From the NCBI GenBank assembly GCA_963665295.1, contig OY762209.1, positions 2,560,001 to 2,624,000 on the forward strand: 64,000 nt of DNA. Reading direction: 5' to 3'. The notes below the pieces were generated by a model. It was not told the DNA's origin. It saw only the letters and a list, made by a program, of their open reading frames with translations, and ran no database searches. Position numbers and translations under genes: made by a program. Source of the stretch: Syntrophorhabdaceae bacterium (GTDB taxonomy: Bacteria; Desulfobacterota; Syntrophorhabdia; Syntrophorhabdales; Syntrophorhabdaceae). This document shows, in pieces, positions 1 through 20,269 of this stretch (position 1 is its first letter; every line of letters begins with the position of its first letter).

Positions 1-613
1 AGGTCTGGTTCATGTAGGACAGACCTCCCTGGATATACCATTTATCCTGTTTGCTCCCCAGGTTGGCGTATCCGTAATACCGGTTGCCCGTGCCGTAGCC
101 CGCGCCGGTAGCGGCCTCGAAGGTCTTCACGGGCCGCCTGGATACCATGTTGATCGCGCCTCCCATGGTGTTAGGACCATAAAGGACGGATGTAAACCCC
201 TTTGTCACGATTATCTCCGAAAGGTCGAAGGTGGTGAACCGGTCGAAGTCGAAGTTCCTGTCGTAAGGCAGATAGACGGGAATGCCGTCCATGAATACGG
301 GTACACGGGAGACACTGAATCCCCGTACATACATCCACGTCTCATTCCTGTTTCCTCCCCTGCTCAAGATTACCCCGGGAAGCAGATTGAGGGCGTCGGG
401 CAACCGGTCCAGACTATAGTCCCGCATCTCCTGCGATTCCACCTTGTCGCTCGTCACATATCTGCTTACCTCCCGGTTGTCCCGGATCTCTATTTCTCCC
501 AGGGTGAATACTCCCGTGTCGGCCGCCGGTGCTCCACGGATAACTCCCGGACCGCATGTGAAGCATATTGCCCAGAAGAGAACGCAGATTCGCCTTATCA
601 GATGATTTCCCAT
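1..613 (-). CDS. TonB-dependent receptor, N-terminal part (signal peptide, plug domain, start of barrel); runs off the window
   Basis: Not in the ORF track; translated by hand from ATG at 613 (GAGG upstream): MGNHLIRRICVLFWAICF...FTLGEIEI...LPDALNLLPGV...YVRGF...VPVFMDGIPVY...EIIVTKGFTSVLYGPNTMGGAINMV, which are TBDR plug motifs. Confidence 0.93.
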   Translation of the reverse strand, partial: MGNHLIRRICVLFWAICFTCGPGVIRGAPAADTGVFTLGEIEIRDNREVSRYVTSDKVESQEMRDYSLDRLPDALNLLPGVILSRGGNRNETWMYVRGFSVSRVPVFMDGIPVYLPYDRNFDFDRFTTFDLSEIIVTKGFTSVLYGPNTMGGAINMVSRRPVKTFEAATGAGYGTGNRYYGYANLGSKQDKWYIQGGLSYMNQT

Positions 614-714
614 ATCGACCTCAGTTGGATTGTGACCCCCACCGCCGTACTGAATGGTCGTCCGCCCTTATCCGGCCCATTCCCGGCAATCGTTGCGAGC
701 GCATCCTTGTGATG

Positions 715-749
715 ATCGTTATATATCAAGAAAGATAACGCCATGTCAA
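715..749 (-). promoter_or_regulatory. sigma70-like promoter of the TBDR, overlapped by a ModE-like operator (717-740)
   Basis: ATCGTTATATA-TCAAGA-AAGATAACG matches the ModE consensus CGTTATATA-N6-TATATAACG at 16/18. A perfect TTGACA on the minus strand (749-744) lies just upstream. Confidence 0.7.
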
Positions 750-966: not shown

Positions 967-1028
967 TTGACAGCGTTATCGTGAGTAATATACAACGCAG
1001 CTACCGTTGGCTCTTATTATATACAACG
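967..1028 (+). promoter_or_regulatory. sigma70-like promoter of the secreted-protein cluster with two tandem ModE-like boxes (974-997, 1005-1028)
   Basis: TTGACA at 967-972 is followed by CGTTATCGT-GAGTAA-TATACAACG and CGTTGGCTC-TTATTA-TATACAACG, both with the same 24-bp CGTT...AACG geometry as the box at 717-740. Confidence 0.62.
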
Positions 1029-1222: not shown

Positions 1223-4207
1223 ATGAGGAAGGAATCGGAACACTGCCGAAGAAGACACGTCACCATGGCCATATGGTTTTTCACGACATGCCTTCTCATT
1301 GCATCAATCCCCGTACATGCAAAAACAAAAGACCTTCTTGAGTTCAACTCCGGAAGCCATGTCCTGGGCTTTTCCTCCGGGTCCATGTACATGGCCTCCG
1401 GCACCCATGTGCTGAAGGTAGAGTTCGTGGGAGGGAAGTCGGTAGTCCCCGTCTCCAGGGAGGGACTCTCCTCCGATGGGAAGGCCCCTCCCTGGAGCAA
1501 GGTAACCTATCCGAACATATGGGACGGAGTGGACATCGTCTATGAAGGAGCCAAAGGCTCCATCGTGAAGTCTACCTATACGGTGGCTGCGGGCAAGGCC
1601 CCAGGCTCCATCCGCCTCCGCTATAACAGACCCCTTACCCTCGATAAGAAGGGCAACCTCGTGGTCCGCTACGAAACCGGCACTATCACGGAATCCAAAC
1701 CCATTGCCTGGCAGGTCATAGAAGGAAAGAAGAAACCCGTCATGGTGGCTTACAACCTCTATTCCGAAAAGGAAGTGGGGTTTACGGTAAAGGATTATGA
1801 CACAAGCCTGCCGCTGGTGATAGACCCCTATTTTTCGTGGAACACCTTCCTCGGGGGAAGCGGCACCGATTACGGATACGCCATAGCCGTGGATTCCGGC
1901 GGGAACATCTATGTGGCGGGAGCGAGCAACGCGACGTGGGGGACGAGTCCCGTAAGGGCGTACACCTCGAGCTACGACGCATTTGTCGCAAAACTGACGG
2001 CCGACGGATCACTCGTATGGAACACCTTCCTCGGAGGCGGCAACGCTGATTACAGCCAGGCCTTGACCGTCGATTCGGCGGGCAATGTCTATGTAACGGG
2101 GATCAGCACCGCCACGTGGGGTACGCCGGTAAGGGCTTACTCAGGGCCGGGCTATGACGCCTTCGTCGCGAAACTGACCACCGACGGATCACTCGTGTGG
2201 AACACCTTCCTCGGAGGCGGCAATAATGATTGGGGGAGCGCCATAGCGGTGGACTCGGCGGGCAACGCCTACGTGGCCGGATACGGCGATGACGACTGGG
2301 GTTCGCCGATAAAGGCCTACGCAGGAGGAAAGTATGACGCCTTCGTCGCGAAACTGACCACCGACGGAGCCCTCGCCTGGAACACCTTCCTCGGGGGATA
2401 CGGCGAAGACCACGGGTGCGCCGTTGCTGCCGGTCAGGATGGGAATGTGTATGTAGCGGGTCGCAGCGACGCCTCCTGGGGATCCCCGATAAGGGGTCAC
2501 ACATCAGGCTATGACGCCTTCGTCGCGAAACTGACCACCGACGGAGCCCTCGTGTGGAACACCTTCCTCGGGGGCTACGACAGCGACTGGGCGAACGCAA
2601 TAGCCGTGAGCCTGAAGGATTACGTCTATGTGGCGGGAGACAGCTATGCCTCCTGGGGCTCCCCGATAAGACCCTACACCTATGATCTCGACGCCTTCGC
2701 CGCAAAACTGACAAGTAACGGAGACCTCGTCTGGCACACCTTCCTTGGAGGGAAGGGCGCGGACCGCGGAAAGGGCATAGGCGTGGATTCAAAGGAGAAC
2801 CCCTATATAGTGGGAGACAGCGGCGCCAAATGGGCCTCTCCGATAAGGGCCTATACCGCATCTATCGACGCTTTCGCGGCTGGACTCGACCCGAAGGGCG
2901 CCCTCCTTTGGAACGCGTTCCTTGGAGGAAAGAATACGGACCAGGGGGCCGCAGCGGCCGTCGATTCCATTGGGAACGCATATGTGACCGGCTACAGCGT
3001 TGTCGCATGGGGAGACCCCGTAAGGCCGTACACGGGAAGCAACGACGCCTTCGTCGCGAAGATAGGCTTTTCCGATGCCTTTACCCTTTCCGTCTCCATC
3101 AACGGCGCAGGCTTGGGCTCCGTCATAAGTAATCCCCCAGGCATCGATTGCGGCTCCACCTGCACGGGCTCCTTCTCCCCGGGGGCGTCCGTTACCCTCA
3201 TTGCCACGGCTAACGGCGCCGCCGCTTTTTCCGGGTTCTCCGGGTGTGATTCCACGTCGGGCTCCACCTGTACGGTAGTGATGACTTCGGACAGGGCTGT
3301 GACTGCAGCTTTCAATCTTGGCTGCACCTATACGATCAGCCCGGCCTCCAAGCCCTTCACCTACAAAGGAGGCAGCGCCAATGTCGCGATACAGGCCACC
3401 GGGGCAAGCTGCGCAAGTCCCTTCGTCTATGTGAGTGATACGTGGATCATTCCCGTGATCACTTCATATGCGAATAACAAGGGCGCCATGAAGATCTCCG
3501 TCCTGGCCAACGAGACGGTCACGGAGAGGAGCGGTGCCGTGACCATAGGGGGAAGCACCTTTTACGTTACACAGGCAGGGTCTCCCTGCTCCCTTGCCTC
3601 CATCTCCCCGACGGGCGGCGTCTTTGACCCGGCAGGGGGATCGGGTTCGTTCAACACCACCGCCGTCACCGGTTGTCGATGGAACGTATCGCCATCCGTG
3701 GATTGGCTGATCCCCTTCACCTCGGTAGGGACAGGGATGGACTCCGTTGCCTATACCGTATCGGCGAACAGGACGGGCAAGCAGAGGACCGGGAAGATTA
3801 CCGTATGCCTTGCCGACAACCCGACGAAAAAGAAGGTGTTTACCGTGAAGCAGTCTCCCTGCTCCCTCACTATCGCCCCGACGAGCGACACCTTCACTGC
3901 CGAGGGGGGATCGGACTCGTTTACCGTAACCACTCCCACCGGCTGCCCGTGGAGCGTATCCCCATCGGTGGACTGGCTCACCACTACAACCTCTTCGGGC
4001 AGCGGGCCGGGTTCGGTCTCCTACACGGCCGTGGGGAATACCGGGAAACAGAGAACCGGCAAGATCACCGTCTACCTGAACGACACCCCAACGCAGAAGA
4101 AGGTCTTTACCGTGACGGAAAAGAAAGGAAATAGAGGCGGGCCCATCCCTCCGGGGGACGGGCGCACTTCGAAGATAGATACATTACATGCAAGGAGCGA
4201 GAGATGA
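1223..4207 (+). CDS. Secreted SBBP-repeat (7-blade beta-propeller) protein with N-terminal DUF7948-like domain, InlB-B-repeat-like domain and C-terminal BACON domains
   Basis: Signal peptide (…LLIASIPVHA), seven ~60-aa W(N/H)xFLGG…AIAVD..GN.YV.G…DAFVAKL repeats, a 'GIDCGSTC..SF..G.SVTL.A' domain and 'C.W.VSPSVDWL…RTGKITV' BACON repeats. Start may be a downstream Met. Confidence 0.85.
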   Translation: MRKESEHCRRRHVTMAIWFFTTCLLIASIPVHAKTKDLLEFNSGSHVLGFSSGSMYMASGTHVLKVEFVGGKSVVPVSREGLSSDGKAPPWSKVTYPNIWDGVDIVYEGAKGSIVKSTYTVAAGKAPGSIRLRYNRPLTLDKKGNLVVRYETGTITESKPIAWQVIEGKKKPVMVAYNLYSEKEVGFTVKDYDTSLPLVIDPYFSWNTFLGGSGTDYGYAIAVDSGGNIYVAGASNATWGTSPVRAYTSSYDAFVAKLTADGSLVWNTFLGGGNADYSQALTVDSAGNVYVTGISTATWGTPVRAYSGPGYDAFVAKLTTDGSLVWNTFLGGGNNDWGSAIAVDSAGNAYVAGYGDDDWGSPIKAYAGGKYDAFVAKLTTDGALAWNTFLGGYGEDHGCAVAAGQDGNVYVAGRSDASWGSPIRGHTSGYDAFVAKLTTDGALVWNTFLGGYDSDWANAIAVSLKDYVYVAGDSYASWGSPIRPYTYDLDAFAAKLTSNGDLVWHTFLGGKGADRGKGIGVDSKENPYIVGDSGAKWASPIRAYTASIDAFAAGLDPKGALLWNAFLGGKNTDQGAAAAVDSIGNAYVTGYSVVAWGDPVRPYTGSNDAFVAKIGFSDAFTLSVSINGAGLGSVISNPPGIDCGSTCTGSFSPGASVTLIATANGAAAFSGFSGCDSTSGSTCTVVMTSDRAVTAAFNLGCTYTISPASKPFTYKGGSANVAIQATGASCASPFVYVSDTWIIPVITSYANNKGAMKISVLANETVTERSGAVTIGGSTFYVTQAGSPCSLASISPTGGVFDPAGGSGSFNTTAVTGCRWNVSPSVDWLIPFTSVGTGMDSVAYTVSANRTGKQRTGKITVCLADNPTKKKVFTVKQSPCSLTIAPTSDTFTAEGGSDSFTVTTPTGCPWSVSPSVDWLTTTTSSGSGPGSVSYTAVGNTGKQRTGKITVYLNDTPTQKKVFTVTEKKGNRGGPIPPGDGRTSKIDTLHARSER
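3858..4125 (+). repeat. Near-identical last BACON domain shared with the downstream paralog (~7168-7435)
   Basis: Direct comparison shows only scattered substitutions across ccctgctccctcac…gtctttaccgtgacggaaaagaa. Confidence 0.85.
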
Positions 4208-7200
4208 CAAAAAACCTCAACCATTACCGAAGACGCTTCATGACCCTGTGCTTCTTCATCGTGTGCCTCTGCGCCCTTCTTGCCCCGGCCCATGCGAAGA
4301 CGGCCGACAGGAAGGACCTCTTCCAGTTCACCTCGGGAAACCATGTCCTCGGGTTTCAAAAGGACTCCATGTACCTCGCATCAGGCTCACACATGCTGAA
4401 GGTGGAGTTCGTGGGAGGAAAACCAGCAACTCCCGTCTCGAAGGAAGGACCCTCACCCGACGGGAAGGCCCCGCCCTTGAGCAAGGTAACCTATTCCGAT
4501 ATATGGGACGGGGTGGACATCGTATATGAAAAGGCCAAAGGCTCCATCGTAAAGTCCACCTATATGATAGCCGCGGGAAAAGAGCCCGGCTCTGTCCGGT
4601 TACGCTACAACAGACCTCTTTCGGTCGATAAGAGCGGCAACCTCGTGATCCGCTACGAGACCGGACGCATGACCGAGAGCAAGCCCATTGCCTGGCAGGT
4701 GGTCGAAGGAAAGAAGAAACCCGTCATGGTGGCCTACAACCTCCATTCCGAAAGGGAAGTGGGCTTTACCGCGAGCGATTACGACAAGAACCTCCCGCTG
4801 GTCATCGACCCATCGCTAACCTGGCATACCTTCCTCGGGGGGAGCGGTGACGACAACGGGCAGGGCATTGTCCTGGACTCGAGCGGCAACATCTATGTGA
4901 CGGGTTACAGTACCGCCGCATGGTCGGAGACGCCGGTCAGGGACTACTACGGCTCAGGCACTGATGCCTTTGCCGCCAGGCTGAACCCCGACGGAACCCT
5001 CGCTTGGTACACCTTCCTCGGGGGAAGCAAGACTGACTACGGGTACGTTATAGCCCTGGACTCGAGCGGCCACGTCTATGTGGCGGGGACCAGCTACGGC
5101 ACTTGGGGAGACAACCCGGTCAGGGCCTACACAGGCTCAACCGACATGTACGACGTCTTCGTCGCCAAGCTCAACAGCGACGGCTCCCTTGTCTGGAACA
5201 CCTTCCTCGGGGGAAGCAGCTACGATAGCCCAAACGGCATAACCGTGGATTCGGCCGACAATATCTATGTGGCGGGGAGGAGTATGGCCAAATGGTCGGA
5301 GACCCCGGTCCGGGCCTATACCGCAAGCTACGACGCCTTTGTCGCCAGGCTTAACACCGGTGGTTCCCTCATCTGGCACACCTTTCTCGGAGGAAGCAGC
5401 GTTGATTACGCTTATGGCTTGGTGACGGATTTGGACGGCTACATTTATGTGGTGGGATACGTCAGCGCTGCATGGTCGGAGACTCCGGTCAGGGCCTATA
5501 CCAAAGGCGGGGAAGGCTACGCCGCCAAGCTTAACACCGATGGTTCCCTCATCTGGCACACCTTTCTCGGAGGAAGCGGCACCGATTACGCCTATAACAT
5601 AGCCCTGGATTCGGCCGACAATATCTATGTGACGGGGAGGAGCAACGCCAAATGGTCGGAGACCCCGGTCAGGGCCTATACCAAAGGCTACGACGCCTTT
5701 GTCGCCAGGCTCAACACCGGCGGCTCCCTCGCCTGGTATACTTTTCTCGGAGGAAGCGGTGACGATTACGGATACGGCATAGCAACGGATTTGAGCGGCC
5801 ACATCTATGTGGCAGGACACAGCGCGGCCGGATGGGGGGATCCTGACAGGCCCTATATTTCGGGCATTGACGCCTTTGCCGCCAAGCTCAACTCCAATGG
5901 GTCCATGGTCTGGAACAGCTTTCTCGGGGGGAGCGGCAACGATTATGGGCAGGGGATGGCCCTGGATTCGACCGGCTCCATCTATGTGGTAGGATACAGC
6001 GGGGCCGCATGGCCGGACACCCAGGTCAGGGCCTACTACGGCTCGGGCAACGACGCCTTCGTCGCAATGTTGAACCCTGTAAGTAGTCAGAGTATCTTAG
6101 TCTCCAGGACCGGCACCGGCTCCGGTGCGGTTACGACCGATCCCTCCGGCATCGACTGTGGCTCCACCTGCCTGGCTACATTCCTTGAGGGAACATCCGT
6201 CACCCTCACCGCCAAAGCCGCGACCGGTTCCAACTTCACGGGCTGGAGTGGCGGATGTAGCGGGACCGGCCCCTGCACTGTCACTATGAGTCGGAATATT
6301 ACCGTGTCCGCGGAGTTCACCCTCGAGATCCATACCGTGAACGCAACAGTCGCGAGCGGCCCCGGCACCGTGTCCCCTGCGACGCAAGCGGTGAGCTACG
6401 GATCGTCCGCATCCGTTACGGTGACCCCCAATGAGCATTGCCATATCACCGCGATCACCGACAACGGCCAGCCGGTGACGGGGGCAAGCAAGGGTATGAC
6501 AGCGGGCAGGAAAGGCTCCGCCGCAAAGAAGACGGCCAAGGCAAAGTCAATCGCCTCCGCGGGCCTCACAGGCGCCTTCGTTCCCGGTCCCTACACCTAC
6601 ACGATAGACAGTGTGACCATCGACCATACGGTGGCGGCCACCTTTGATGTCGATACCGAGGCACTGAAGGTCACGAAGACGGGCACGGGAAAAGGCACCC
6701 TTACCGGGACCGCCCTCACCTGCGGGGGCAGCTACTGTTCCTCCGTCTACCTATACGGCGCCACGGTGACCATTACCGCGGCAGCGGATACAGGTTCCAA
6801 ATTCGCGGGCTTCACCGGGTGCGACTCCGTTTCCGGGAACACCTGTACACTCCTCATGACAACGCACAGAGACATCACCGCGAGGTTTACGGGCGATGAC
6901 GACTGCGTCTACACCGTCTCCCCGACGGGCAAGTCCTTCACCTATAAGGGAGGGAGCGTCAGCATCAGCGTCAGGGCCAAGGGAGGGGAGATGTGCGCGA
7001 GCCCCGACGTGTCCGCGAGCGACGCGTGGATAGGGACAAACGTAAGCGCATTCAGGAACAATAAGGGCACACTCAAAATAACGACTCCGGCGAACAATAC
7101 GTCTTCGGAGAGGACCGGGACCGTCACCATTCAAGGTAACCCGTTTGCCGTTGCCCAGGCCGGGGCGCCCTGCTCCCTCACCATCGCCCCGACGGGCGAC

Positions 7201-7443
7201 GCCTTCACCGCCGAGGGGGGATCGGGTTCGTTTACCGTGACCACTCCCACCGGCTGCCCGTGGAGCGTATCCCCATCGGTGGACTGGCTCATCACTACAA
7301 CCTCTTCGGGCAGCGGGCCGGGTTCCGTCTCCTACACGGCCATGGAGAATACAGGGAAACAGAGAACCGGCAAGATCACCGTCTACCTGACCGACACCCC
7401 GACCAAGAAGAAGGTCTTTACCGTGACGGAAAAGAAGAAATAG
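4204..7443 (+). CDS. Second secreted SBBP-repeat beta-propeller protein (DUF7948-like, 7 SBBP repeats, InlB-B-repeat-like, BACON)
   Basis: Paralog of 1223-4207 with a signal peptide (…LLAPAHA), seven WxxFLGG repeats, an AAGGAG SD and an ATGA overlap with the upstream gene. Confidence 0.87.
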   Translation: MTKNLNHYRRRFMTLCFFIVCLCALLAPAHAKTADRKDLFQFTSGNHVLGFQKDSMYLASGSHMLKVEFVGGKPATPVSKEGPSPDGKAPPLSKVTYSDIWDGVDIVYEKAKGSIVKSTYMIAAGKEPGSVRLRYNRPLSVDKSGNLVIRYETGRMTESKPIAWQVVEGKKKPVMVAYNLHSEREVGFTASDYDKNLPLVIDPSLTWHTFLGGSGDDNGQGIVLDSSGNIYVTGYSTAAWSETPVRDYYGSGTDAFAARLNPDGTLAWYTFLGGSKTDYGYVIALDSSGHVYVAGTSYGTWGDNPVRAYTGSTDMYDVFVAKLNSDGSLVWNTFLGGSSYDSPNGITVDSADNIYVAGRSMAKWSETPVRAYTASYDAFVARLNTGGSLIWHTFLGGSSVDYAYGLVTDLDGYIYVVGYVSAAWSETPVRAYTKGGEGYAAKLNTDGSLIWHTFLGGSGTDYAYNIALDSADNIYVTGRSNAKWSETPVRAYTKGYDAFVARLNTGGSLAWYTFLGGSGDDYGYGIATDLSGHIYVAGHSAAGWGDPDRPYISGIDAFAAKLNSNGSMVWNSFLGGSGNDYGQGMALDSTGSIYVVGYSGAAWPDTQVRAYYGSGNDAFVAMLNPVSSQSILVSRTGTGSGAVTTDPSGIDCGSTCLATFLEGTSVTLTAKAATGSNFTGWSGGCSGTGPCTVTMSRNITVSAEFTLEIHTVNATVASGPGTVSPATQAVSYGSSASVTVTPNEHCHITAITDNGQPVTGASKGMTAGRKGSAAKKTAKAKSIASAGLTGAFVPGPYTYTIDSVTIDHTVAATFDVDTEALKVTKTGTGKGTLTGTALTCGGSYCSSVYLYGATVTITAAADTGSKFAGFTGCDSVSGNTCTLLMTTHRDITARFTGDDDCVYTVSPTGKSFTYKGGSVSISVRAKGGEMCASPDVSASDAWIGTNVSAFRNNKGTLKITTPANNTSSERTGTVTIQGNPFAVAQAGAPCSLTIAPTGDAFTAEGGSGSFTVTTPTGCPWSVSPSVDWLITTTSSGSGPGSVSYTAMENTGKQRTGKITVYLTDTPTKKKVFTVTEKKK

Positions 7444-7953
7444 AGACGTGAAGATACGGATAAAGGGGCGGGCCGCGAAGGCCCGCCCCCCTTACACCAT
7501 GAGAAGCGCTCCGGCGCGGAAGGAGGTTATGTGAAGTCCCTACTTGGCCAAGTATTACCTGTGTTGTCTCTCCTCAGCCTGCTCTTTTTTGCCTGTTTCC
7601 CGGCAACCCCTGTCCACGGGGTGGTGAAGATCGATTCAGAGCTTCGAAAGCTCATGAGCGAGGATGAATCGACGGGCTATATCATACACTTCAAATCGAA
7701 GCTCAGCCTCAAGAAGGCATACGCCATGGAATGGAAGGCACGGGGTCGCTTCGTCGCCGACACCCTGAGAGATACGGCAAACGAGTCCCAGGCCGGCGTA
7801 AAAGCGTACCTCAAGGACAGGAACGCCCTGTACAAAAGCTTCTGGGTAGGGAATATGATCGTGGTGGAGGCGTCCGACCTCGCCACTCTCAACGGCCTCG
7901 AGGACTTCCCCGAAATAGACCGGATCGCCCGGCGACCCAGGATAGTTCTCCAC
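7385..7953 (+). repeat. Copy 1 of the S8 5' cassette (end of upstream gene, hairpin, RBS, signal peptide, propeptide)
   Basis: Identical by eye over 569 bp to 13602-14170. 7494-7962 matches 16451-16919 with one mismatch (7938/16895). Confidence 0.95.
7465..7489. terminator. GC-rich hairpin without a + strand U-tract (terminator or mRNA-stabilising stem); duplicated at 13682-13706
   Basis: GGGGCGGGCC-GCGAA-GGCCCGCCCC is a perfect 10-bp stem. Confidence 0.55.
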
Positions 7954-10788: not shown

Positions 10789-10802
10789 AGGAGGATATCT
10801 TG

Positions 10803-13607
10803 ATGATAGTGAGAATATGTCTCGCACTGTTGATTACGCTTATGACCTTCTCTTCGGCTCATGCCTGGCCGTCGCCGGTCTGGAAAACGGGTCAGACCCT
10901 GACCCAGTGGGCAGGAGACGACGGGGAACTTCGGAAGGGCGTGGAATGGCCCTCGCCACGCTTCACTGTTGACGGGGAGTGCGTCACCGACAATCTCACC
11001 GGCCTTATGTGGAGTGTGGACGCAAATCCCACGGGCGGCACCAGTTGGCAGGGGGCGTTCGATTACGCGGACAGCCTCACCCTCTGCGGCCACTCCGACT
11101 GGCGGGTCCCCAACAGGAAGGAAATGATGAGCCTCGTGGACCGCTCGCAGTTTACGCCCGCCCTCCCCGCGGACCATCCCTTTACCAACGTCGTGGCGAG
11201 CGGCTATTACTGGACATCGACCACGTGCGCATACTACCCGGGTTACACATGGTATATCCGCATGCAGTCCGGCGAGGAGGAGCGCGGCGCCAAGGGCAAC
11301 TCGTGGCCCGTGTGGCCCGTCCGCGGAGGCGGACCTTTCCGGGTCAAAATAGGCTTGACCCCCTTGTCCGGCGCTGCGGGCACCGTGTTCACACAGAAGG
11401 GTATGGGGTTTACTCCGGGCGGCACCGCGACGCTCCACGTGAGGCAGTCCGATGGGGCCGAATTTCCGACCGTCACGCTCCCCCTCAGCTCACACGGCCG
11501 CTTCGTGGCCACGCGCGCCACGCCCACGGATCTTCCCGCGGGCAACTATACGTGGTGGAGCGTTGACGATGCCACGGGTATGAAGACCGACGAGATGACG
11601 TTCCGCATCGAGCCCCAACAAACCTACCCTCTGACCGTGGTGAAATCGGGCCTGGGCAAAGGGACTGTCACGGGTCCTTCCGCGGGGATCAGTTGCGGCG
11701 ACACGTGCAGCGCTCAGCTTGCGCCGGGGACACAGGTCGTGCTTACGGCTAAAGCCGACGCGGCCCACGAGTTCATCGGCTGGACCGGGGCCTGCTTCGG
11801 CACCGATGACTGCACGGTCACTGTGGACGCCGGCACTACGGTAGGGGCCATGTTTCAGGACCGGACCAAATCGGTGGAACACGTGGTCCTCCTCGTGGTT
11901 GATGGCCTGAGACCTGATTATTTCTACAGTATGCTCGACGAAAACTGGGGGGGCGGTGAATCCAGCGAGTATCCGTTTATGCGCTCCCTCTTCAGGGATG
12001 CGCCGTACTTCAGGATCGACAAGTGCATGAGCACCTTTCCGACGGCAGCTTACTCGGACAATGCTTCCCTCGTCACGGGCAGTTATCCGGCGAAACACGG
12101 CATTCAGGGTGACGCGTGGTGCGACCGCACAACTCAGGTGTGCCGCGATTATGCGGGAAGCGATGAGATCAAGGTCTTCCAGCAGGGGATTGCGACAGCC
12201 GATTTGGACAGCGCGGCAACGACCGTGTATGACCTTCTTGCGGAGAAAGGCCTGAGCAGCCAGATCACCTTTCATATGTATAGCGGGAAAAATACGGCAG
12301 GCAAAATTGTCTGGACGGCGCCCGAGCCGGCGGATAACGCCGAGGTTGTGCGAAACGCGGAAAAGCGCGACAACAACATGATCTATGAAGCATTAACACA
12401 GATAAAGAAGAGGGGGCTCCCGAATCTGCTCACCCTCCATTTTGCGGGCCACGATTATGCCGTTCGGAAGAACGGAAAGGACGACAGTTTTGAATACGTG
12501 CAACAGGCAATCGACCCTCTCCTAGGCATTCTCATCGAAGGCGGAGAGCTTGAGAGGTACGGCTCCACCGTTGCCGAGAGGATGCGCTTCCCCGGATTGA
12601 TAAGCGGATTTGCCGAGCAACTCGCGAAGACGGTGTTCGTGATCACTTCCGGCCACGGCGCGAGCTCGATCGTGGATGACGGGAAACACATGATCCGGGT
12701 ATCCGATATTCGCGAGGCCCTCGAAGGCGCGGGGTTCGACGCGGATAATACCTGGATATCGACAAACGGTGGGATGGCCCACATTTACATTCGCAACAGG
12801 GCCACGGCGAACTGGGCCGATTATCCGCAGTCCAGCGATATAGCCCTTGCCTATGCCGCCCTCTCAAACCAGAGGGAGACCCTCGGAATAGACCGGGTTC
12901 TGGCAAGGGACTCGAAAAAGACGGGCGGCTGGACCGCCTCCTACAAAAGCAATCCCAAGGCCCTCCCGGCAGAGGACGGTAAGAGAGTTTCAAAGCTGGC
13001 ATCCGTCCGAAGCGGAGACATAATCCTCATTCCGGGGGCAGGGTATGAGTTTGGTTCCACCCTCCACAAAAGCGGCCACGGAGGTCTGAGCAAGGAGGAT
13101 TCCCTTGTTCCTCTCGTGTTCTCGGGTACTCCCTTAGGATACAACCAGAAAGTCGTCAAGACCGCCAACATCACGGTTTGTGACGTGGCTCCCACTATCA
13201 GCGCGCTTTTGGGGATACAGATGACGAATGCAGACGGGAAGGCTATTTCGGAGGTGGTGAAAGCCTCTGCCGCAATGGAGGATATCTCCGTCTCACCGAA
13301 GGCCCTCTCCTTCGGGAATGTAGCCCGCACAAAATCCGCAACACGGAAAATTACCATCACCAATAAAGGGAAGAAGAACCTTTCCATAGACAAAGTTGCG
13401 GTAGGCGGAACACATGCGTCCGATTTCGCGGTTCCCGGTGCGACGGACACCTGTACGGGGCAGAGCATTGCGCCCAGGAGGACATGCACGGTTTCGGTGG
13501 TATTCACCCCCGGGGATGAGGGGAAGAGGAGTGCCGCCATAGAGATATCATCGAGCGACCCGGACGCTCCGTCCACGATAGTGTCTGCCGCGGGAACCGG
13601 CACCTGA
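10803..13607 (+). CDS. Secreted multidomain protein: DUF1566, Ig-like, InlB-B-repeat-like, degenerate alkaline-phosphatase-superfamily (NPP/type I phosphodiesterase) domain, C-terminal choice-of-anchor-D/ASH-like domain
   Basis: AAGGAGG SD supports ATG 10803. DUF1566 motifs; VVLLVVDGLRPD…SLVTGSYPAKHGI…VITSGHG…SGHGGLS…VPLVFSG…DVAPTI; tail 'ISVSP..LSFG.V…ITITNKG…L.I…DTC….I.P…CTVSVVFTP'. Confidence 0.85.
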   Translation: MIVRICLALLITLMTFSSAHAWPSPVWKTGQTLTQWAGDDGELRKGVEWPSPRFTVDGECVTDNLTGLMWSVDANPTGGTSWQGAFDYADSLTLCGHSDWRVPNRKEMMSLVDRSQFTPALPADHPFTNVVASGYYWTSTTCAYYPGYTWYIRMQSGEEERGAKGNSWPVWPVRGGGPFRVKIGLTPLSGAAGTVFTQKGMGFTPGGTATLHVRQSDGAEFPTVTLPLSSHGRFVATRATPTDLPAGNYTWWSVDDATGMKTDEMTFRIEPQQTYPLTVVKSGLGKGTVTGPSAGISCGDTCSAQLAPGTQVVLTAKADAAHEFIGWTGACFGTDDCTVTVDAGTTVGAMFQDRTKSVEHVVLLVVDGLRPDYFYSMLDENWGGGESSEYPFMRSLFRDAPYFRIDKCMSTFPTAAYSDNASLVTGSYPAKHGIQGDAWCDRTTQVCRDYAGSDEIKVFQQGIATADLDSAATTVYDLLAEKGLSSQITFHMYSGKNTAGKIVWTAPEPADNAEVVRNAEKRDNNMIYEALTQIKKRGLPNLLTLHFAGHDYAVRKNGKDDSFEYVQQAIDPLLGILIEGGELERYGSTVAERMRFPGLISGFAEQLAKTVFVITSGHGASSIVDDGKHMIRVSDIREALEGAGFDADNTWISTNGGMAHIYIRNRATANWADYPQSSDIALAYAALSNQRETLGIDRVLARDSKKTGGWTASYKSNPKALPAEDGKRVSKLASVRSGDIILIPGAGYEFGSTLHKSGHGGLSKEDSLVPLVFSGTPLGYNQKVVKTANITVCDVAPTISALLGIQMTNADGKAISEVVKASAAMEDISVSPKALSFGNVARTKSATRKITITNKGKKNLSIDKVAVGGTHASDFAVPGATDTCTGQSIAPRRTCTVSVVFTPGDEGKRSAAIEISSSDPDAPSTIVSAAGTGT

Positions 13608-14170
13608 CCGACACCCCGACCAAGAAGAAGGTCTTTACCGTGACGGAAAAGAAGAAATAGAGACGTGAAGATACGGATAAAGGGGCGGGCCGCGAAGGCC
13701 CGCCCCCCTTACACCATGAGAAGCGCTCCGGCGCGGAAGGAGGTTATGTGAAGTCCCTACTTGGCCAAGTATTACCTGTGTTGTCTCTCCTCAGCCTGCT
13801 CTTTTTTGCCTGTTTCCCGGCAACCCCTGTCCACGGGGTGGTGAAGATCGATTCAGAGCTTCGAAAGCTCATGAGCGAGGATGAATCGACGGGCTATATC
13901 ATACACTTCAAATCGAAGCTCAGCCTCAAGAAGGCATACGCCATGGAATGGAAGGCACGGGGTCGCTTCGTCGCCGACACCCTGAGAGATACGGCAAACG
14001 AGTCCCAGGCCGGCGTAAAAGCGTACCTCAAGGACAGGAACGCCCTGTACAAAAGCTTCTGGGTAGGGAATATGATCGTGGTGGAGGCGTCCGACCTCGC
14101 CACTCTCAACGGCCTCGAGGACTTCCCCGAAATAGACCGGATCGCCCGGCGACCCAGGATAGTTCTCCAC
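13602..14170 (+). repeat. Copy 2 of the S8 5' cassette (569 bp, identical to 7385-7953)
   Basis: Direct comparison at offset 6217 bp; the alternative-frame ORFs in the track are also identical here. Confidence 0.95.
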
Positions 14171-16390
14171 AAACCGGTGGAAACGGGGGCAGCATCCCAT
14201 GAAGTCACGGGCGTGGAGCCTAACCTCTCCCACGTGAGGGCCGACCAGGTGTGGACTACCCTCGGCATCAAGGGGAGCGGGGTAACGGTGGCGAATATCG
14301 ACACGGGCGTGCGCTACACCCACCAGGCCCTTGTGAACCAGTACCGGGGAAATTCGGGCGGGGTCTACGACCACAACTACAACTGGTGGGACGCCACGGG
14401 CAGTTACCCCACCTCTCCCGATGATGAGAACGGTCATGGCACTCACACCATGGGCATCATGGTGGGTGACGATGGTGGATCCCGCCGGATCGGCATGGCG
14501 CCGGAGGCGAAGTGGATCGCGTGCCGGGGATGCACGGCGGACTCTTGCATCGACGAGGCCGTTCTTGAATGCGCCCAGTGGATGGTTGCCCCGTGGGACC
14601 TGAGTAAGTCTTCGCCCAATCCTGCCTTGCGGCCCCAGGTGGTGAACAACTCATGGGGCGACTGCAGCCAAAGTTATGACGGCTGGTTTCAGGCCGTCGT
14701 GGACGCCTGGCACGCGGCCGGCATATATCCCGTCTTTTCGGGCGGCAACGCAAGCGACTGCGGATATTCCAGATGGGTGCCGCCGTGCGGGACCGTGGGC
14801 AATCCCGGACGGTACGGGAATGTGACCGCCGTGGGCCCCACGGATAAGTCAAGCGACGGAGTATCGTACACCGCCACCAGGGGCCCCACGGACAGCGCCG
14901 ACACGATAAACCCCGGTGGCTACCCGTACCTGAAACCCCAGGTGATGGCACCGGGCATCTCGATCGTCTCGTCCTACAATACCGGCGATGACGGGTACCA
15001 GTGGATTACCGGCGCTTCGACGGCGGCTCCTCATGTGGCCGGTCTTGTTGCCCTCATACTCAGCGGGTGCCCCAGCCTTTCGGAAAGCTATGGTGAAGTG
15101 GAGACGGCCATTCAGAATTCCGCAGTCCCCATCTCCTGGAGCTCAAGTTGTGGAAACGAGGGACCGGACGCTGTGCCGAACAACGTAACGGGCTGGGGCA
15201 GAATCGATGCCCTCGCAGCCCTCACGCTCACCTCGGGGATCTGCACCACCGGCATTGTCGGCGGGACCGTGCGGGATGCCCGCACGCAAAAACCCATCGA
15301 GGGTGCCAACGTGACGGGGGCAGGCGCCGCGGTGACGAATGCCTCGGGCCAATTCACATTGAAGCCCGTCTCCGAAGGATCGTGGACGGTGAGGGCCTCG
15401 GCCCACGGTTACTACGACCAGTCCGCCACGGCCCGCGTGACCAGGAGCGTCACCACGACCGTCGATATCAGCCTTGTGCCGAAGGGCATGACCACACTGA
15501 CCGGCAAGGTGACGGACGGCTCGGGCGCGAAATGGCCGCTTTACGCGACCCTCGCGGCAACGAACAACAATGTGACGGTGGGAGCCTCCACCAACGCCTC
15601 CACGGGGGCCTACACAATGAAGGTGTACAGGGACACCGATTATGCCTTCAAGGTTTCCTCTCCCGGGTACGCTGCCGCGGAGGCCACCCTTACGACAACG
15701 GGAAAATTCAGCCCGAGGAACTTCAGCCTCATGGTCGGCCCCGATTGCTCCGCCCAGGGATACACGCTTTCCGGGGGCGAGTGCTCTGTCCGGAGCGGGG
15801 GCCTCGTCACCGGCCTCACCAGGGACGGGAACACAAAGAGCCCGCTGCCGGGCATGGTGGTGAGTTCCCTATCAGGGTCGGCAACGAGCGACTCGGGCGG
15901 GAGGTACATCGTGTTCTCGCCTGCGGGAAAAAACTCGTTTACCGCCAACCCGTCGGCCCTCTCGAACTACGGTAGTCTTACGCGACGGGTGACTGCTGCG
16001 GCGGGCAAGACCGTTAGCTCCGATTTTGACCTTCCCGCGCCTGTATTGAAAGGTCCGAAGAGTGTGAGCGTGACCCTCGCCCAGGGCTCGACGAAGAAGA
16101 CGACGGTCAAACTGCAGAACGCCGGGGGGGTTTCGACACCCTTCACCCTTACCTCGACTGAGGCGGCGTGGCTCGGTATATCACCCGTCTCGGATACCCT
16201 GGGAGCGAAGAAGAGCGAGTCCGTCGCGCTCGCCTTCGACGCCGCCGGACTGAGCACCGGTACTTACAACGCCGTGATAACCGTGAGCGGGGCGACCCCG
16301 TACGACTCCTCGTCCATTTTCGTGACCATGAAGGTGACTGCGGGGAAGAAGGGCGGGATATCAGGTGAATCCGACAATGAAGGGGAATAG
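13748..16390 (+). CDS. Secreted S8 serine protease, copy 2 (atypical nucleophile motif GASTAAPH)
   Basis: NIDTGV, NGHGTHTMG and TGASTAAPHV; same architecture as copy 1. Confidence 0.92.
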   Translation: MKSLLGQVLPVLSLLSLLFFACFPATPVHGVVKIDSELRKLMSEDESTGYIIHFKSKLSLKKAYAMEWKARGRFVADTLRDTANESQAGVKAYLKDRNALYKSFWVGNMIVVEASDLATLNGLEDFPEIDRIARRPRIVLHKPVETGAASHEVTGVEPNLSHVRADQVWTTLGIKGSGVTVANIDTGVRYTHQALVNQYRGNSGGVYDHNYNWWDATGSYPTSPDDENGHGTHTMGIMVGDDGGSRRIGMAPEAKWIACRGCTADSCIDEAVLECAQWMVAPWDLSKSSPNPALRPQVVNNSWGDCSQSYDGWFQAVVDAWHAAGIYPVFSGGNASDCGYSRWVPPCGTVGNPGRYGNVTAVGPTDKSSDGVSYTATRGPTDSADTINPGGYPYLKPQVMAPGISIVSSYNTGDDGYQWITGASTAAPHVAGLVALILSGCPSLSESYGEVETAIQNSAVPISWSSSCGNEGPDAVPNNVTGWGRIDALAALTLTSGICTTGIVGGTVRDARTQKPIEGANVTGAGAAVTNASGQFTLKPVSEGSWTVRASAHGYYDQSATARVTRSVTTTVDISLVPKGMTTLTGKVTDGSGAKWPLYATLAATNNNVTVGASTNASTGAYTMKVYRDTDYAFKVSSPGYAAAEATLTTTGKFSPRNFSLMVGPDCSAQGYTLSGGECSVRSGGLVTGLTRDGNTKSPLPGMVVSSLSGSATSDSGGRYIVFSPAGKNSFTANPSALSNYGSLTRRVTAAAGKTVSSDFDLPAPVLKGPKSVSVTLAQGSTKKTTVKLQNAGGVSTPFTLTSTEAAWLGISPVSDTLGAKKSESVALAFDAAGLSTGTYNAVITVSGATPYDSSSIFVTMKVTAGKKGGISGESDNEGE

Positions 16391-16450: not shown

Positions 16451-16919
16451 ACACCATGAGAAGCGCTCCGGCGCGGAAGGAGGTTATGTGAAGTCCCTAC
16501 TTGGCCAAGTATTACCTGTGTTGTCTCTCCTCAGCCTGCTCTTTTTTGCCTGTTTCCCGGCAACCCCTGTCCACGGGGTGGTGAAGATCGATTCAGAGCT
16601 TCGAAAGCTCATGAGCGAGGATGAATCGACGGGCTATATCATACACTTCAAATCGAAGCTCAGCCTCAAGAAGGCATACGCCATGGAATGGAAGGCACGG
16701 GGTCGCTTCGTCGCCGACACCCTGAGAGATACGGCAAACGAGTCCCAGGCCGGCGTAAAAGCGTACCTCAAGGACAGGAACGCCCTGTACAAAAGCTTCT
16801 GGGTAGGGAATATGATCGTGGTGGAGGCGTCCGACCTCGCCACTCTCAACGGCCTCGAGGACTTCCCCGAAATAGACCGGATCGCCCGGCGACCGAGGAT
16901 AGTTCTCCACGAGCCCGTG
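16451..16919 (+). repeat. Copy 3 of the S8 5' cassette (469 bp, 1 mismatch to 7494-7962)
   Basis: Direct comparison at offset 8957 bp. Confidence 0.95.
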
Positions 16920-19124
16920 GAAATATTTCCTGCCACCCAAAACTCGAGTATAGCGCCGAACCTCTCCCACGTGAGGGTCGACCAGGTGTGGACCACCCTC
17001 GGCATCAAGGGGAGCGGGGTAACGGTGGCGAATATCGACACGGGCGTGCGCTACACCCACCAGGCCCTCGTGAACCAGTACCGGGGCAATTCGGGCGGGG
17101 CCTATAACCACAACTACAACTGGTGGGACCCCTACGGCGACCATCCCGCCGAGCCGGGCGACGATCTCGGCCACGGGAGCCACACCATGGGCGTCATGGT
17201 GGGCTCCGACGGAGGATCGAACCAGACCGGCATGGCACCGGAGGCAAGGTGGATCGCCTGCAGGGCATGCAGCACGAGCTCCTGCAGCGACACGGCCCTC
17301 TTCGAATGCGGCCAGTGGGTGATCGCCCCGTGGGACTTGAACAAGTCTTCTCCCGATCCGGACTTGAGGCCCCAGGTGGTGAACAACTCGTGGAGCGACT
17401 GCAGCCGGAGCTATGAGGACTTTTTTCAGGATGTCATCGATGCCTGGCATGCGGCCGGCATCTACCCTGTCTTTTCAGCCGGTAATGCAGGCAACTGTGG
17501 ATACCCGGAGCCTCCGGGATGCGGGACCATAGGCGGCCCCGGGCGACTCGCCAATGTGACCGCAGTGGGCGCAACAGGCACAAGCGACGGGCAGTATGCG
17601 AGCTTCTCGAACTGGGGCCCCACGGACACCCCCGACACGGTGAACCCCGGCGGCTATCCCTACGTGAAGCCCCAGGTAGTGGCGCCGGGGGCCTCGATCG
17701 TTTCTTCCTATAACTCCGGCGATGGCGGATATGTATCCATGTCCGGTACTTCCATGGCGGCCCCGCACGTGGCGGGCCTCGTAGCGCTTATGCTCAACGC
17801 GTGCCCAAGCCTTTCCCAAATGTATGGAAAAGCGGAGACACTCATTCAGAGGACTGCCGTCCCCATCCCGTATGCGTCGAACTGCGGAGGCGAGGGGCCG
17901 GGCAACGTGCCGAACAATGCAACGGGCTGGGGCGAGATCGACGCCCTCGCAGCGGTTCGGTCCGCCGCAGAGAGCTGCACATGCGGCGCGGTCACCGGGA
18001 CGGTACGGGACGCCCGCACCAAGAATGCGATCGAGGGCGCGAAAGTGACAGGTGCCGCGGGCACGACCACGGATGCATCGGGTCGATTCACCCTGGACTA
18101 TCTCCCGCCGGGGTCGCAGAACCTGAATGCCTCCCGCCAGGGTTATTACGACAGGACCATCACGATGACCATCGCCAAAAACGCCACTACGACCGTCGAT
18201 ATCAGTCTTGAGCCGAAAGCCATGACCACGCTGACCGGCAAGGTGACGGACGGCTCCGGGGCGAAATGGCCGCTTTACGGGACCGTGGCGGCTACGAGCA
18301 ATGACGAGACGGTGAGGGCCTTCACCAACGCCGCTACCGGGGCCTACACAATGAAGTTGTACAAAGACACTGCGTATGCTTTGCGGGTCTCCTCTACCGG
18401 GTATACCACCGCGGAGACCACCTTTACCACGACGGGAAAATTCAGCCCGAGGAATTTCAGCCTCATGGTCGGCCCCGATTGCTCCGCCCAGGGATACGCG
18501 CTTTCCGGGGGCGCGTGCGCTGTCCGGAGCGGGGGTCTCGTCACCGGCCTCACCAGGGACGCGAACACGAAGAGCCTGGTGCCGGGCATTGTGGTGAATT
18601 CCATATTCGGCACGGGAACGAGCGACTCGAGCGGAAGGTATGTCTTTTTCTCACCTGCAGGGAACAGCCCTTTTGTCGGCAACCCCTCGGCCCTCTCGAA
18701 CTACGGCAGCCTTACCCGATGGGTGACCGTCACAGCGGGCAAGATCGTCACCTCCAATTTCGACCTTCCTGCGCCTGTATTGAAGGGGCCGAAGAGTGTG
18801 AGCGTGACCCTTGCTCAAGGCTCGACGAAGAAGGCCACGGTCAAGCTGCAGAACGCCGGGGGGGTCTCGACGCCCTTCACCCTTACCTCGACCGAGGCGG
18901 CGTGGCTCGGTATATCACCCGCCTCGGGCGTCCTGGAGGCAAAGAAGACTCAATCCGTCACGCTCAGCTTCGACGCTGCCGGCATGAGCGCGGGCGTGCA
19001 CAGCGCTCTGATAAATGTGAGCGGCGTGACCCCGTACGACCCTCTGTCCATTCCTGTGACGATGAAGGTAACGGCCGCGAAGAAAGGCGGGACATGGGAT
19101 GAGACCAACTATGGAGATGAATAG
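16488..19124 (+). CDS. Secreted S8 serine protease, copy 3
   Basis: Start set by homology to copies 1 and 2 (GTG after AAGGAGG); NIDTGV, LGHGSHTMG and SGTSMAAPHV. Confidence 0.92.
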   Translation: MKSLLGQVLPVLSLLSLLFFACFPATPVHGVVKIDSELRKLMSEDESTGYIIHFKSKLSLKKAYAMEWKARGRFVADTLRDTANESQAGVKAYLKDRNALYKSFWVGNMIVVEASDLATLNGLEDFPEIDRIARRPRIVLHEPVEIFPATQNSSIAPNLSHVRVDQVWTTLGIKGSGVTVANIDTGVRYTHQALVNQYRGNSGGAYNHNYNWWDPYGDHPAEPGDDLGHGSHTMGVMVGSDGGSNQTGMAPEARWIACRACSTSSCSDTALFECGQWVIAPWDLNKSSPDPDLRPQVVNNSWSDCSRSYEDFFQDVIDAWHAAGIYPVFSAGNAGNCGYPEPPGCGTIGGPGRLANVTAVGATGTSDGQYASFSNWGPTDTPDTVNPGGYPYVKPQVVAPGASIVSSYNSGDGGYVSMSGTSMAAPHVAGLVALMLNACPSLSQMYGKAETLIQRTAVPIPYASNCGGEGPGNVPNNATGWGEIDALAAVRSAAESCTCGAVTGTVRDARTKNAIEGAKVTGAAGTTTDASGRFTLDYLPPGSQNLNASRQGYYDRTITMTIAKNATTTVDISLEPKAMTTLTGKVTDGSGAKWPLYGTVAATSNDETVRAFTNAATGAYTMKLYKDTAYALRVSSTGYTTAETTFTTTGKFSPRNFSLMVGPDCSAQGYALSGGACAVRSGGLVTGLTRDANTKSLVPGIVVNSIFGTGTSDSSGRYVFFSPAGNSPFVGNPSALSNYGSLTRWVTVTAGKIVTSNFDLPAPVLKGPKSVSVTLAQGSTKKATVKLQNAGGVSTPFTLTSTEAAWLGISPASGVLEAKKTQSVTLSFDAAGMSAGVHSALINVSGVTPYDPLSIPVTMKVTAAKKGGTWDETNYGDE

Positions 19125-19150
19125 CCCGTCCGGCGATAAGGAGAGAAGTG

Positions 19151-20269
19151 ATGGATTTCACAAGAAAAAACCTCAGTTTCTTCATAGCCCTTTTATTGTC
19201 GATAGCGCTGTTGGCCGGTTCGGCGAGCGGGCGGCAGAACGAGGAGACCTGGAAATTCGCATTCATCAGCGATACGCAGGGAGACTACAGTAACCCTGCC
19301 GACCATTCCTGTATCAACGGGCCGGTCTTGCGGGCGATCGCCAAAGATATCGCAGAGGAAAGACCCGACTTCGTCCTTGTCGGGGGCGACCTGGTAAACG
19401 GCTGGCACCGGAATGGCGGCACGGATTACGCAACCCAGTTCGCAAACTGGAAATCCGCCATGGAACCTGTATACAAGGAAGGTATCTCTGTTTTTCCCGT
19501 GCGGGGAAACCATGAGAGCGGTCCCGACCGCGTTGCTCTCCCTCCTCTTCCCGCGCACCTCGAACCTCCTCCCGGAGCGCTCACAAAACTGGAGGAGGCG
19601 TTCAAGGACGCCTTTCCGCGGGCATATGGATATATACCGAAGAATGGGCCGAAAGGCGAGGAGGGTCTCACCTTCGGTTTCACGCACAAGAGTGTTTTCG
19701 TTATTGGGATGGACCAGTACGGACCTCATCCGCACCGCGTAAACCAGGAATGGCTCGACCGCGAACTTGCGGCCAACACGAAACCCCACGTATTTCTCTA
19801 TGGTCACGAACCGGCTTTCGGAGTCGGTCACATCGATAACCTCGCCTTCTACCCCGCGGACCGGGACCGCCTTTGGGACAGCTTCGGGAAGGGAGGCGGA
19901 AGGGTTTATTTTTCGGGACACGACCACTTTTATAATAGGGCGGCTATCCCAGACAAGACGGGGAACCGGATCTACCAGGTGATTGCAGGCACGGGAGGAG
20001 GCCGTTTCAGGGCGTGGAGCGGGGCGTACGCCGAAAGAGAGAGGGTGAAGGGAGAATACAGCGATTCCGGCAAGCACGGATACATTCTTGTCACCATTGA
20101 AGGTTCGAGGGCTACGGTTGCCTGGAAGGCGTTGCGCCGGGCAAACGGGGTTGACCTGTGGGAGGTTCGCGATTCCTTCTCATACACCCTTCCCGGCGTA
20201 GTAAACAAGATTCGTGGAGCAGACAGCGGTCTTTCGGCAGGTCCGCCGCTTGCACCGGTTCACCCCTGA
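19151..20269 (+). CDS. Secreted calcineurin-like metallophosphoesterase
   Basis: Motifs ISDTQ, GGDLVNG, RGNHE, GHEP and SGHDHFY; signal peptide; AAGGAG SD. Confidence 0.9.
   Translation: MDFTRKNLSFFIALLLSIALLAGSASGRQNEETWKFAFISDTQGDYSNPADHSCINGPVLRAIAKDIAEERPDFVLVGGDLVNGWHRNGGTDYATQFANWKSAMEPVYKEGISVFPVRGNHESGPDRVALPPLPAHLEPPPGALTKLEEAFKDAFPRAYGYIPKNGPKGEEGLTFGFTHKSVFVIGMDQYGPHPHRVNQEWLDRELAANTKPHVFLYGHEPAFGVGHIDNLAFYPADRDRLWDSFGKGGGRVYFSGHDHFYNRAAIPDKTGNRIYQVIAGTGGGRFRAWSGAYAERERVKGEYSDSGKHGYILVTIEGSRATVAWKALRRANGVDLWEVRDSFSYTLPGVVNKIRGADSGLSAGPPLAPVHP

Follow-up and report, generated by a model that had tools for sequence, protein, structure and literature searches.

Why should a 19-kb array of secreted surface proteins stand behind operators that resemble those of the molybdate regulator ModE? 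The question is raised by a stretch of 64,000 nucleotides (nt) from a Syntrophorhabdaceae bacterium (contig OY762209.1 of assembly GCA_963665295.1, positions 2,560,001 to 2,624,000; G000:C1:2560001-2624000), hereafter called the window, whose genome, G000, is a single contig of 5.5 Mb. At the left end of the window, two divergent promoters carry operator boxes of this type; one of them faces a gene for a TonB-dependent receptor, and the other faces eight genes for exported proteins, the last of which encodes a metallophosphoesterase. With modest confidence, we favor the reading that this locus is a satellite of an uptake island for molybdenum and tungsten (Mo/W), in which the receptor and the phosphoesterase would serve Mo/W import and the genes between them would be captured cargo. 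Comparisons were made across 96 genomes of the order Syntrophorhabdales (95 relatives and G000) and, for the receptor, across 68 genomes of the family; several of the gene names given around the G000 boxes are our own reading of the sequences.

Operator boxes and divergent promoters

The initial annotation of this DNA placed three 24-bp boxes of the form CGTT-N16-AACG at positions 717-740, 974-997 and 1005-1028, and all three are present. The window contains no further match, and all three lie in the divergent promoter region; the chance mean is 0.83 matches, and four of 100 shuffled windows reached three. The bare pattern is weak by itself, with 57 matches across the genome. A composite pattern, in which a -35 hexamer is followed 1-3 nt on by an operator matrix site, finds 12 sites in G000, both window promoters included, versus 0, 0, 0, 2, 0, 0, 1 and 0 sites in eight shuffles; six of the 12 sites are seeds of the matrix, and the window sites are not among these.

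A repressor-like geometry had been described as well, with a TTGACA hexamer 1-3 nt from a box at both promoters, and the gaps are indeed 3 and 1 nt. On the receptor side, the hexamer (744..749, minus strand) stands 3 nt from box 1 (717..740), which covers the predicted -10 element (725-720), and this promoter fits the composite pattern. With a matrix built only from the boxes of 138 distinct ModE promoters of relatives, box 1 scores 27.7 and holds rank 1 among the 5.5 million positions of the genome. On the array side, the hexamer (967..972, plus strand) lies 1 nt from box 2 (974..997), a spacing that is shared by 23 of the 138 promoters of relatives. Box 2 is a moderate site over the predicted -10 element (989-994), with a score of 16.2 and rank 16; a matrix made from the genome's own transport sites gives 17.2 and rank 18. 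Box 3 (1005..1028) is a weak, tandem second operator (score 12.5, rank 23), a weakness that resembles that of other second boxes in G000, where tandem pairs are also found before the island receptor, exbBD and the MoeA operon. A generic sigma-70 scan detected neither window promoter.

The gene list given for the two sides holds, with corrected starts for the third S8 gene (16488) and the gene of the Lcl-AlkP fusion (about 10785-10803). On the right, eight co-oriented open reading frames fill positions 1223-20269, no gap between them exceeds 140 nt, and they are presumed to share a single 19-kb transcript; each begins with a hydrophobic, signal-type segment, and no other membrane-length stretch is present in any of them.

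The motif, its regulator and the regulon

The ModE consensus quoted in the accessible parts of two papers, CGnTATATA-N6-TATATAnCG, has the same length and arms as the window boxes (PMC2700814, PMC545781), and we read the latter as ModE-type operators to which ModE would bind. Across the order, the composite pattern occurs at 151 sites in 69 of the 96 genomes (4 in the control), mostly before modA, modE and genes for TonB receptors, binding proteins and porins, with moeA and mop also among the targets; this agrees with the earlier identification of the box as a ModE operator and with the expectation that it would recur in relatives. Within G000, boxes precede the island that runs from a receptor gene to mop-modABC (169673/169703), exbBD (184369), a second ModA-family ABC operon (2675971), an operon for a methyltransferase, a binding protein, a receptor and MoeA that includes FecCD (2914654), a DUF364-like gene and a gene for a binding protein. 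The same box had been expected before modABC or tupABC; it stands before both modABC-type operons, but the region upstream of tupA lacks it. The genome's demand for these metals is real, with four AFOR-family and 11 molybdopterin-oxidoreductase matches.

The ModE-family regulator that had been predicted to exist is encoded at 197683-198021 (L001:1444-1782). This sole ModE has 112 amino acids and matches TIGR00637 with an E-value of 8e-21 and 73.9 bits, under the cut-off of 98.5; orthologues adjoin boxes in relatives, and ModE proteins that lack Mop are common in the order. Because the protein has no Mop domains, we infer its response to Mo/W from its targets. A stand-alone Mop gene is located in the G000 island (181522-181722), and ModE and this separate Mop may possibly act as a split sensor. 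A ModE protein with one Mop domain is described, in the part of the source available, as binding DNA independently of molybdenum in vitro (PMC12327845).

The motif could instead belong to NikR or a TunR/TaoR-like regulator, and the signal would then not be Mo/W. A nikR gene is present, the NikR consensus shares the spacing of the GTTA...TAAC core, and a delta-proteobacterial NikR site is similarly spaced, according to the accessible part of PMC545781. However, the receptor gene beside nikR carries a distinct NikR-type repeat, by eye with a 13-nt spacer, which scores -4.2 with the ModE matrix; the window boxes end in CGTT...AACG and do not follow GTGTTAC-N13/14-GTAACAC; the targets of the motif across the order are modA, modE, moeA and mop genes; and the tupA upstream region is devoid of such a box. 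We have therefore rejected NikR as the regulator, and consider control by any of these other proteins highly improbable.

Further strong boxes of G000 have no obvious transport target (1121790, 168012, 1264097, 3321625); their contexts are an open reading frame of 65 codons with a Cys motif, short open reading frames, an RHS-like remnant, and a mobile element beside an insertion sequence. At G000:C1:855867-860390 (L004), a ModE box is followed by genes for a binding protein and a radical SAM protein, and then by a co-oriented gene for a secreted RCC1-repeat protein.

The TonB-dependent receptor

The receptor gene enters the window with its 5' part (1..613, minus strand); the whole gene (G000:C1:2558496-2560613) is monocistronic and encodes 705 amino acids with a Plug domain. 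The protein is 69% identical to the receptor of the main Mo/W island of the same genome, and homology between the two gene copies extends into the upstream DNA and the ribosome-binding site. Orthologues are found in 18 of the 68 family genomes; boxes lie upstream in all 19 of the loci listed, and a short modE gene is divergent in eight of them. The proposal that this receptor takes part in Mo/W uptake thus gains support from both its paralogy and the setting of its orthologues. Since modABC and tupABC-like genes are present separately in G000, a complexed ligand is likelier than the bare oxyanion, and a pterin-bound cofactor or a chelate appears the more likely cargo.

The terminal phosphoesterase

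The last gene of the array (19151..20269, plus strand) starts some 25 nt downstream of subtilase 3 without a separate box and is the only copy in the genome, the main island of G000 being without one. It encodes an exported metallophosphoesterase that is predicted to adopt the fold of PhoD and the purple acid phosphatases. The predicted structure (predicted local distance difference test score, pLDDT, of 83) matches 2yeq, 7ov8 and 6ofd with Z-scores of 25.5, 25.4 and 24.7 and root-mean-square deviations of 3.0-3.4 over 268-293 residues; the fold is shared at 15-17% identity, but the genes considered here lie in Mo/W islands and not in a phosphate-starvation context. The dimetal motifs, the first of which reads D-T-Q, are invariant in 45 homologues; judged by the structural model, the protein thus has both the fold and the dimetal motifs of the calcineurin-like and purple acid phosphatases. 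The ESM Atlas offers only the term 'metallophosphoesterase', and a plasmid search with the protein gave no match.

Orthologues with at least 52% identity were found in ten of the 95 relatives and in one further genome (G291) among 250 sampled from the phylum, and ten of these 11 sit in Mo/W islands, the one in G010 having no island context. In G073, the gene lies between moeA and modA; in G077, G076, G015, G063 and G291, it is placed inside operons for a receptor, FecCD and a radical SAM protein, followed in G291 by tupA-like and ABC genes; in G064, it adjoins an island gene; and in G005, G092 and G093, it is at most 0.7 kb from a box. A co-oriented box is present in the DNA examined for seven of the orthologues and absent from that of G063, G064 and G291. 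These genomes are kin and not independent, so that the counts form an argument from context and not a statistic. Seven distant homologues (37-41% identity) have no island neighbors; one of them has a site scoring 16.8 about 545 nt upstream. From this gene context, we regard the phosphoesterase family as a conserved member of Mo/W islands and a new member of the regulon.

Molybdate and tungstate are ligands of purple acid phosphatases, and molybdopterin carries a phosphate. These two properties lead to two candidate roles, and by analogy suggest that the protein may either trim the cofactor or hold the oxyanion.

The seven genes between promoter and phosphoesterase

The seven remaining genes, all on the plus strand, encode secreted proteins. 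The first two (1223..4207 and 4204..7443; 994 and 1079 amino acids) combine, by Pfam, a DUF7948 domain, an SBBP beta-propeller and InlB-repeat/BACON domains, and we accordingly take the SBBP beta-propeller to be their fold. They are followed by S8 subtilase 1, with carboxypeptidase-regulatory and Ig-like domains (7531..10170); a protein of 186 amino acids with a domain match to the Lcl C-terminal domain (10228..10788); a fusion of Lcl, alkaline-phosphatase-superfamily (AlkP) and Ig-like domains (10785..13607); and S8 subtilases 2 (13748..16390) and 3 (16488..19124), whose DNA is 81% and 82% identical to that of subtilase 1. The array has thus undergone tandem expansion, and a 10-bp GC hairpin without a U tract that precedes subtilase 1 (7465..7489) recurs at 13682-13706 within the tandem duplication. 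All three subtilases retain the Asp-His-Ser triad. In the AlkP domain, Ala is aligned with the position of PafA that we take to be the nucleophile, where Ser or Thr would be expected, and the fusion is therefore predicted to be inactive as a phosphoesterase.

In the initial annotation, the locus was seen as a conserved eight-gene scavenging system. Its core would be a selected sequence of capture, digestion and import under Mo/W starvation: the cell exposes diversified propeller and Lcl proteins as binders, subtilases free cofactor from organic matter or from Mo/W enzymes outside the cell, and after trimming by the phosphoesterase this cofactor enters through the receptor. The Mo/W-island genes at both ends of the unit, the intact triads and the genome's many Mo/W-enzyme genes speak for such a system; its conservation does not. 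Receptor and phosphoesterase track Mo/W islands in relatives, but not one of the 138 ModE promoters (133 with at least 1 kb and 94 with at least 3 kb of downstream DNA) is followed by SBBP, S8, Lcl, AlkP or the shared C-terminal module, and within 3 kb of the same promoters a receptor gene is found at 17 and a phosphoesterase gene at two. The nine SBBP and nine S8 loci of relatives have no ModE-type promoter; the best upstream site there scores 13.6 and lacks the -35 geometry. Neither the AlkP domain (at 1e-15) nor the array promoter with its leader was found in the 95 relatives. The same domains occur in 67 proteins of G000, 14 of them in the two arrays described here and 53 elsewhere, and one of these 53 genes has an upstream site of at least 15, with its -35 hexamer facing away. 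The array proteins showed no feature for binding metal or pterin, and the AlkP domain lacks its nucleophile. A conserved system is thus not supported; the seven genes, which were not seen under ModE boxes in the relatives searched, are probably recent captures of surface-protein genes that were expanded in tandem, with the status of passengers.

The SBBP N-terminal domain has 13 distant counterparts (25-39% identity), mostly in Bacteroidota, in a scan of a genome collection, and metagenome scans with the array promoter pattern and with alignment A1 returned nothing, a result that is not evidence of absence. A genome of the same genus contains a truncated member of this SBBP subfamily, 59% identical (L061:1662-2066; G001:C46), with no ModE box upstream. 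A papain-family BACON gene (G000:1262207) was considered as an independent ModE-driven secreted protein and rejected; its box scores 26.4, but the -35 hexamer points to an RHS-like remnant.

Duplication of the unit

The array promoter has a 94%-identical copy 23.3 kb to the left. This copy drives another five propeller genes and a gene for a subtilase of 1149 amino acids, which likewise retains the triad; no phosphoesterase gene follows. In this left unit (G000:C1:2537138-2557852; L011, L012), which extends the locus by about 22 kb beyond the window edge and converges on the tail of the receptor gene, the promoter copy abuts a 98%-identical remnant of the receptor's 3' end. This fusion indicates that the whole unit of receptor, promoter and array was duplicated and that the left receptor gene then lost its front. 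Both promoter versions are present in contigs of four public sequencing runs, in which no contig spans the whole stretch. The arrays have a GC content of 60% versus 54.7%, and roughly 200 nt separate their start from a 43-bp tRNA-Arg attachment repeat beside an integrase gene. Base composition, attachment site and receptor remnant all count in favor of capture. An element of about 64 kb (G000:C1:2472640-2536930), integrated at tRNA-Arg(CCG), bounded by the 43-bp repeat and equipped with an integrase, stops some 200 nt short of the left receptor remnant.

The two copies bear on two of the alternatives. The idea of capture, digestion and import gains from the duplication of the whole unit with survival of the arms of box 2, and from four left propeller paralogues whose N-terminal domains are 99-100% identical and whose propellers share 53-65%, as in diversifying arrays of binders; it loses from the decay of box 3, which scores 3.3 in the left copy. 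The same decay would fit ModE control of the receptor alone, in which the operators on the right would be remnants undergoing decay and the array would be transcribed from a strong sigma-70 promoter or from internal promoters, largely regardless of Mo/W. Boxes 2 and 3 of the window are weaker than typical first boxes, the duplication is recent enough that retention needs little selection, and the regulator has no sensor domain. Yet box 2 still holds its high rank, with the -35 geometry of the regulon and a tandem partner, and the last gene of the array, which has no operator of its own, belongs to the regulon elsewhere. Control restricted to the receptor is, in our view, quite improbable.

Exported proteins behind ModE promoters in relatives

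Several relatives place other exported proteins behind ModE promoters. Genes for two-partner secretion (TpsA/TpsB) stand directly behind five ModE-type promoters in four genomes (G005, G073 with two, G036 and G090; L281:12777-16100, L279:15482-17265, L278:5999-7777, L282:10070-14021, L289:1-6171). Exported Oxidored_molyb-like proteins of 320-345 amino acids, whose Pfam matches are near or below the cut-off, are encoded behind boxes in G079, G086, G090 and G093 (L289:7747-10279, L288:6917-7882, L291:834-1868, L287:14565-15599) and could possibly serve as cofactor carriers. In G073, a lipoprotein-lipase array lies behind a ModE promoter. The gene after TpsA in G005 and G073 was considered as a secreted ModA and rejected; it encodes an exported protein in which no similarity to ModA was found. 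The repeated placing of differing surface proteins under ModE boxes may reflect selection, or merely the mobility of the islands.

These loci count in favor of a selected system of capture, digestion and import, as does the secreted route of molybdate capture in Pseudomonas that is considered below. Taken together with the missing conservation of the array, we hold such a system to be unlikely, though with a real chance of being correct.

Weighing the satellite reading

According to the reading that we favor, ModE would cover both -10 elements when the metals are sufficient. When Mo/W run short, ModE would be released, and the receptor as well as a long transcript ending in the phosphoesterase gene would be made. 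The receptor would import a Mo/W-bearing complex, the phosphoesterase would process or hold this complex outside the cytoplasm, and uptake across the inner membrane would be provided in trans by the ABC systems of the island; the propeller, subtilase and Lcl genes would be switched on together with them as captured cargo.

Several observations weigh against this interpretation. With its score, box 2 falls under the 5th percentile for the first boxes of relatives (22.7, an in-sample value). The phosphoesterase gene is 18 kb from the promoter and behind two GC hairpins, so that its co-transcription is assumed. No Mop/TOBE match exists at the modE locus of G000, the regulator hence being without a molybdate-binding domain; the modE gene itself has no ModE box upstream, and molybdenum sensing by short ModE proteins is called unclear in the accessible part of PMC545781. 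For the receptor, no relative of solved structure was found at 1e-10, and its ligand is assigned from gene context. Two further points argue against a pure passenger status of the array: the left box 2 keeps both arms, with all three of its changes in the spacer (3/3), and in several relatives exported proteins, those of two-partner secretion among them, are encoded behind ModE promoters.

A candidate small RNA

An orphan promoter with tandem boxes (G000:3156219-3156281) has no open reading frame behind it; a pyrimidine-rich seed and then a hairpin follow. The candidate small RNA at this place (G000:C1:3156219-3156380; L009:6220-6412) has an anti-Shine-Dalgarno-like seed and a covarying hairpin, and further loci were recognized (L048, L124, L127, L160, L165, L166, L169-L171, L174, L200, L202, L256, L257). 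The seed lies at most 260 nt downstream of 20 of the 138 ModE promoters of relatives. It is conserved among 16 selected sequences, in which seven of 12 hairpin pairs show two-sided change; five loci gave no Rfam match. By duplex energy with this RNA, a gene that we take to encode a Mo-hydroxylase FAD subunit ranks third among 3105 start regions. The RNA is a candidate for a ModE-repressed, Mo/W-sparing RNA, possibly comparable to RyhB.

In a wider form, the locus would be one part of a Mo/W-starvation program of the Syntrophorhabdales, in which a sensor-less ModE releases receptors, the phosphoesterase and lineage-specific surface arsenals that strip cofactor from extracellular enzymes for import, and the small RNA spares the metals inside the cell. 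Such arsenals would be two-partner adhesins in certain genomes and the diversified propellers with subtilases in G000. We rate this program as rather unlikely.

Neighboring genes

To the right of the array lies a module of HdrA-, MvhD- and NuoEFG-like genes (21082-28050), for which we presume BamBCDEFGHI family names. The initial annotation saw in it a motive for the locus, because its characterized counterpart serves a tungsten enzyme. The module resembles the BamBCDEFGHI class II benzoyl-CoA reductase complex in its HdrA-, MvhD- and NuoEFG-like genes, but the window lacks BamB and has Cys in place of selenocysteine. It is the third copy in the genome; the other two carry TGA (selenocysteine) at the position of this Cys and are located some 3-4 kb from AFOR-family genes, and the NuoE, NuoF and NuoG proteins are 100% identical in all three. 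The AFOR_N genes are located at 3.81, 3.98, 4.71 and 5.39 Mb; two of the four adjoin the other copies of the module, and none lies in the window cluster. The module has no ModE box (best score 0.3). Since the window holds the cysteine copy and the selenocysteine copies adjoin the tungsten enzyme elsewhere, adjacency does not provide the motive, and we have rejected the module as a part of the locus.

Farther to the right (39427-50820), the window contains YD/RHS-type genes for proteins of 429 and 1492 amino acids with an IS630-like transposase gene between them.

Comparison with known systems

TonB systems with secreted partners, such as the HxuCBA haemophore uptake system, can be controlled by Fur. 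The locus resembles these in that a starvation repressor would act on a TonB receptor together with secreted proteins, and the TpsA/TpsB loci of relatives share the layout. Here, however, the metal would be Mo/W, and the secreted proteins are propellers and subtilases.

The ModE regulons of Escherichia coli, of Geobacter sulfurreducens (modDABC) and of Methanosarcina acetivorans (PMC12327845), insofar as they could be consulted, share with the present one an encoded ModE DNA-binding domain and, over the promoters of molybdate ABC systems, a 24-bp operator alike in form and spacing. Unlike them, the regulon described here has a ModE made up solely of the DNA-binding domain, with Mop encoded by a gene of its own in the island, and adds TonB receptors, an exported phosphoesterase and a surface array. 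The targets named in the accessible parts of these sources belong to transport, molybdenum cofactor synthesis, nitrogenase, hydrogenase and dehydrogenase; the Geobacter listing is covered in part, so that secreted targets may exist there.

The nearest precedent is found in Pseudomonas aeruginosa, in which, according to the portions available, a ModA protein secreted by the H2 type VI secretion system and the outer-membrane protein IcmP capture molybdate anaerobically (PMC10482370, PMC11734730). As in our locus, an extracellular protein is joined to an outer-membrane receptor; in contrast, the Pseudomonas system is Anr-controlled and exports ModA itself by type VI secretion, whereas ModE-type control, signal peptides and a TonB-dependent receptor, without a secreted ModA-like protein, are found here. 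The literature searched, to which most subscription papers do not belong and in which 'ModE' also matches 'mode', contained neither a ModE-controlled secreted protease or adhesin array nor a metallophosphoesterase tied to Mo/W uptake; within the same limits as to subscription papers, it contained no ModE-repressed small RNA.

Implications for metal acquisition

Syntrophic degraders of aromatic compounds rely on enzymes that contain tungsten or molybdenum, and this locus speaks to the question of how such organisms acquire the two metals in anoxic habitats. What it offers is a family of receptors whose genes lie behind ModE boxes, along with a family of exported phosphoesterases that is found in Mo/W islands in ten of 11 close orthologues, and the metal regulon appears to have taken in a 19-kb array of surface proteins, twice by way of the duplication. 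Should the array be a passenger, it would be a clear case of regulon capture. Should it work in scavenging, it would extend haemophore-like piracy to Mo/W, and if the wider starvation program holds true, the Syntrophorhabdales would possess a cofactor-piracy system for molybdenum and tungsten.

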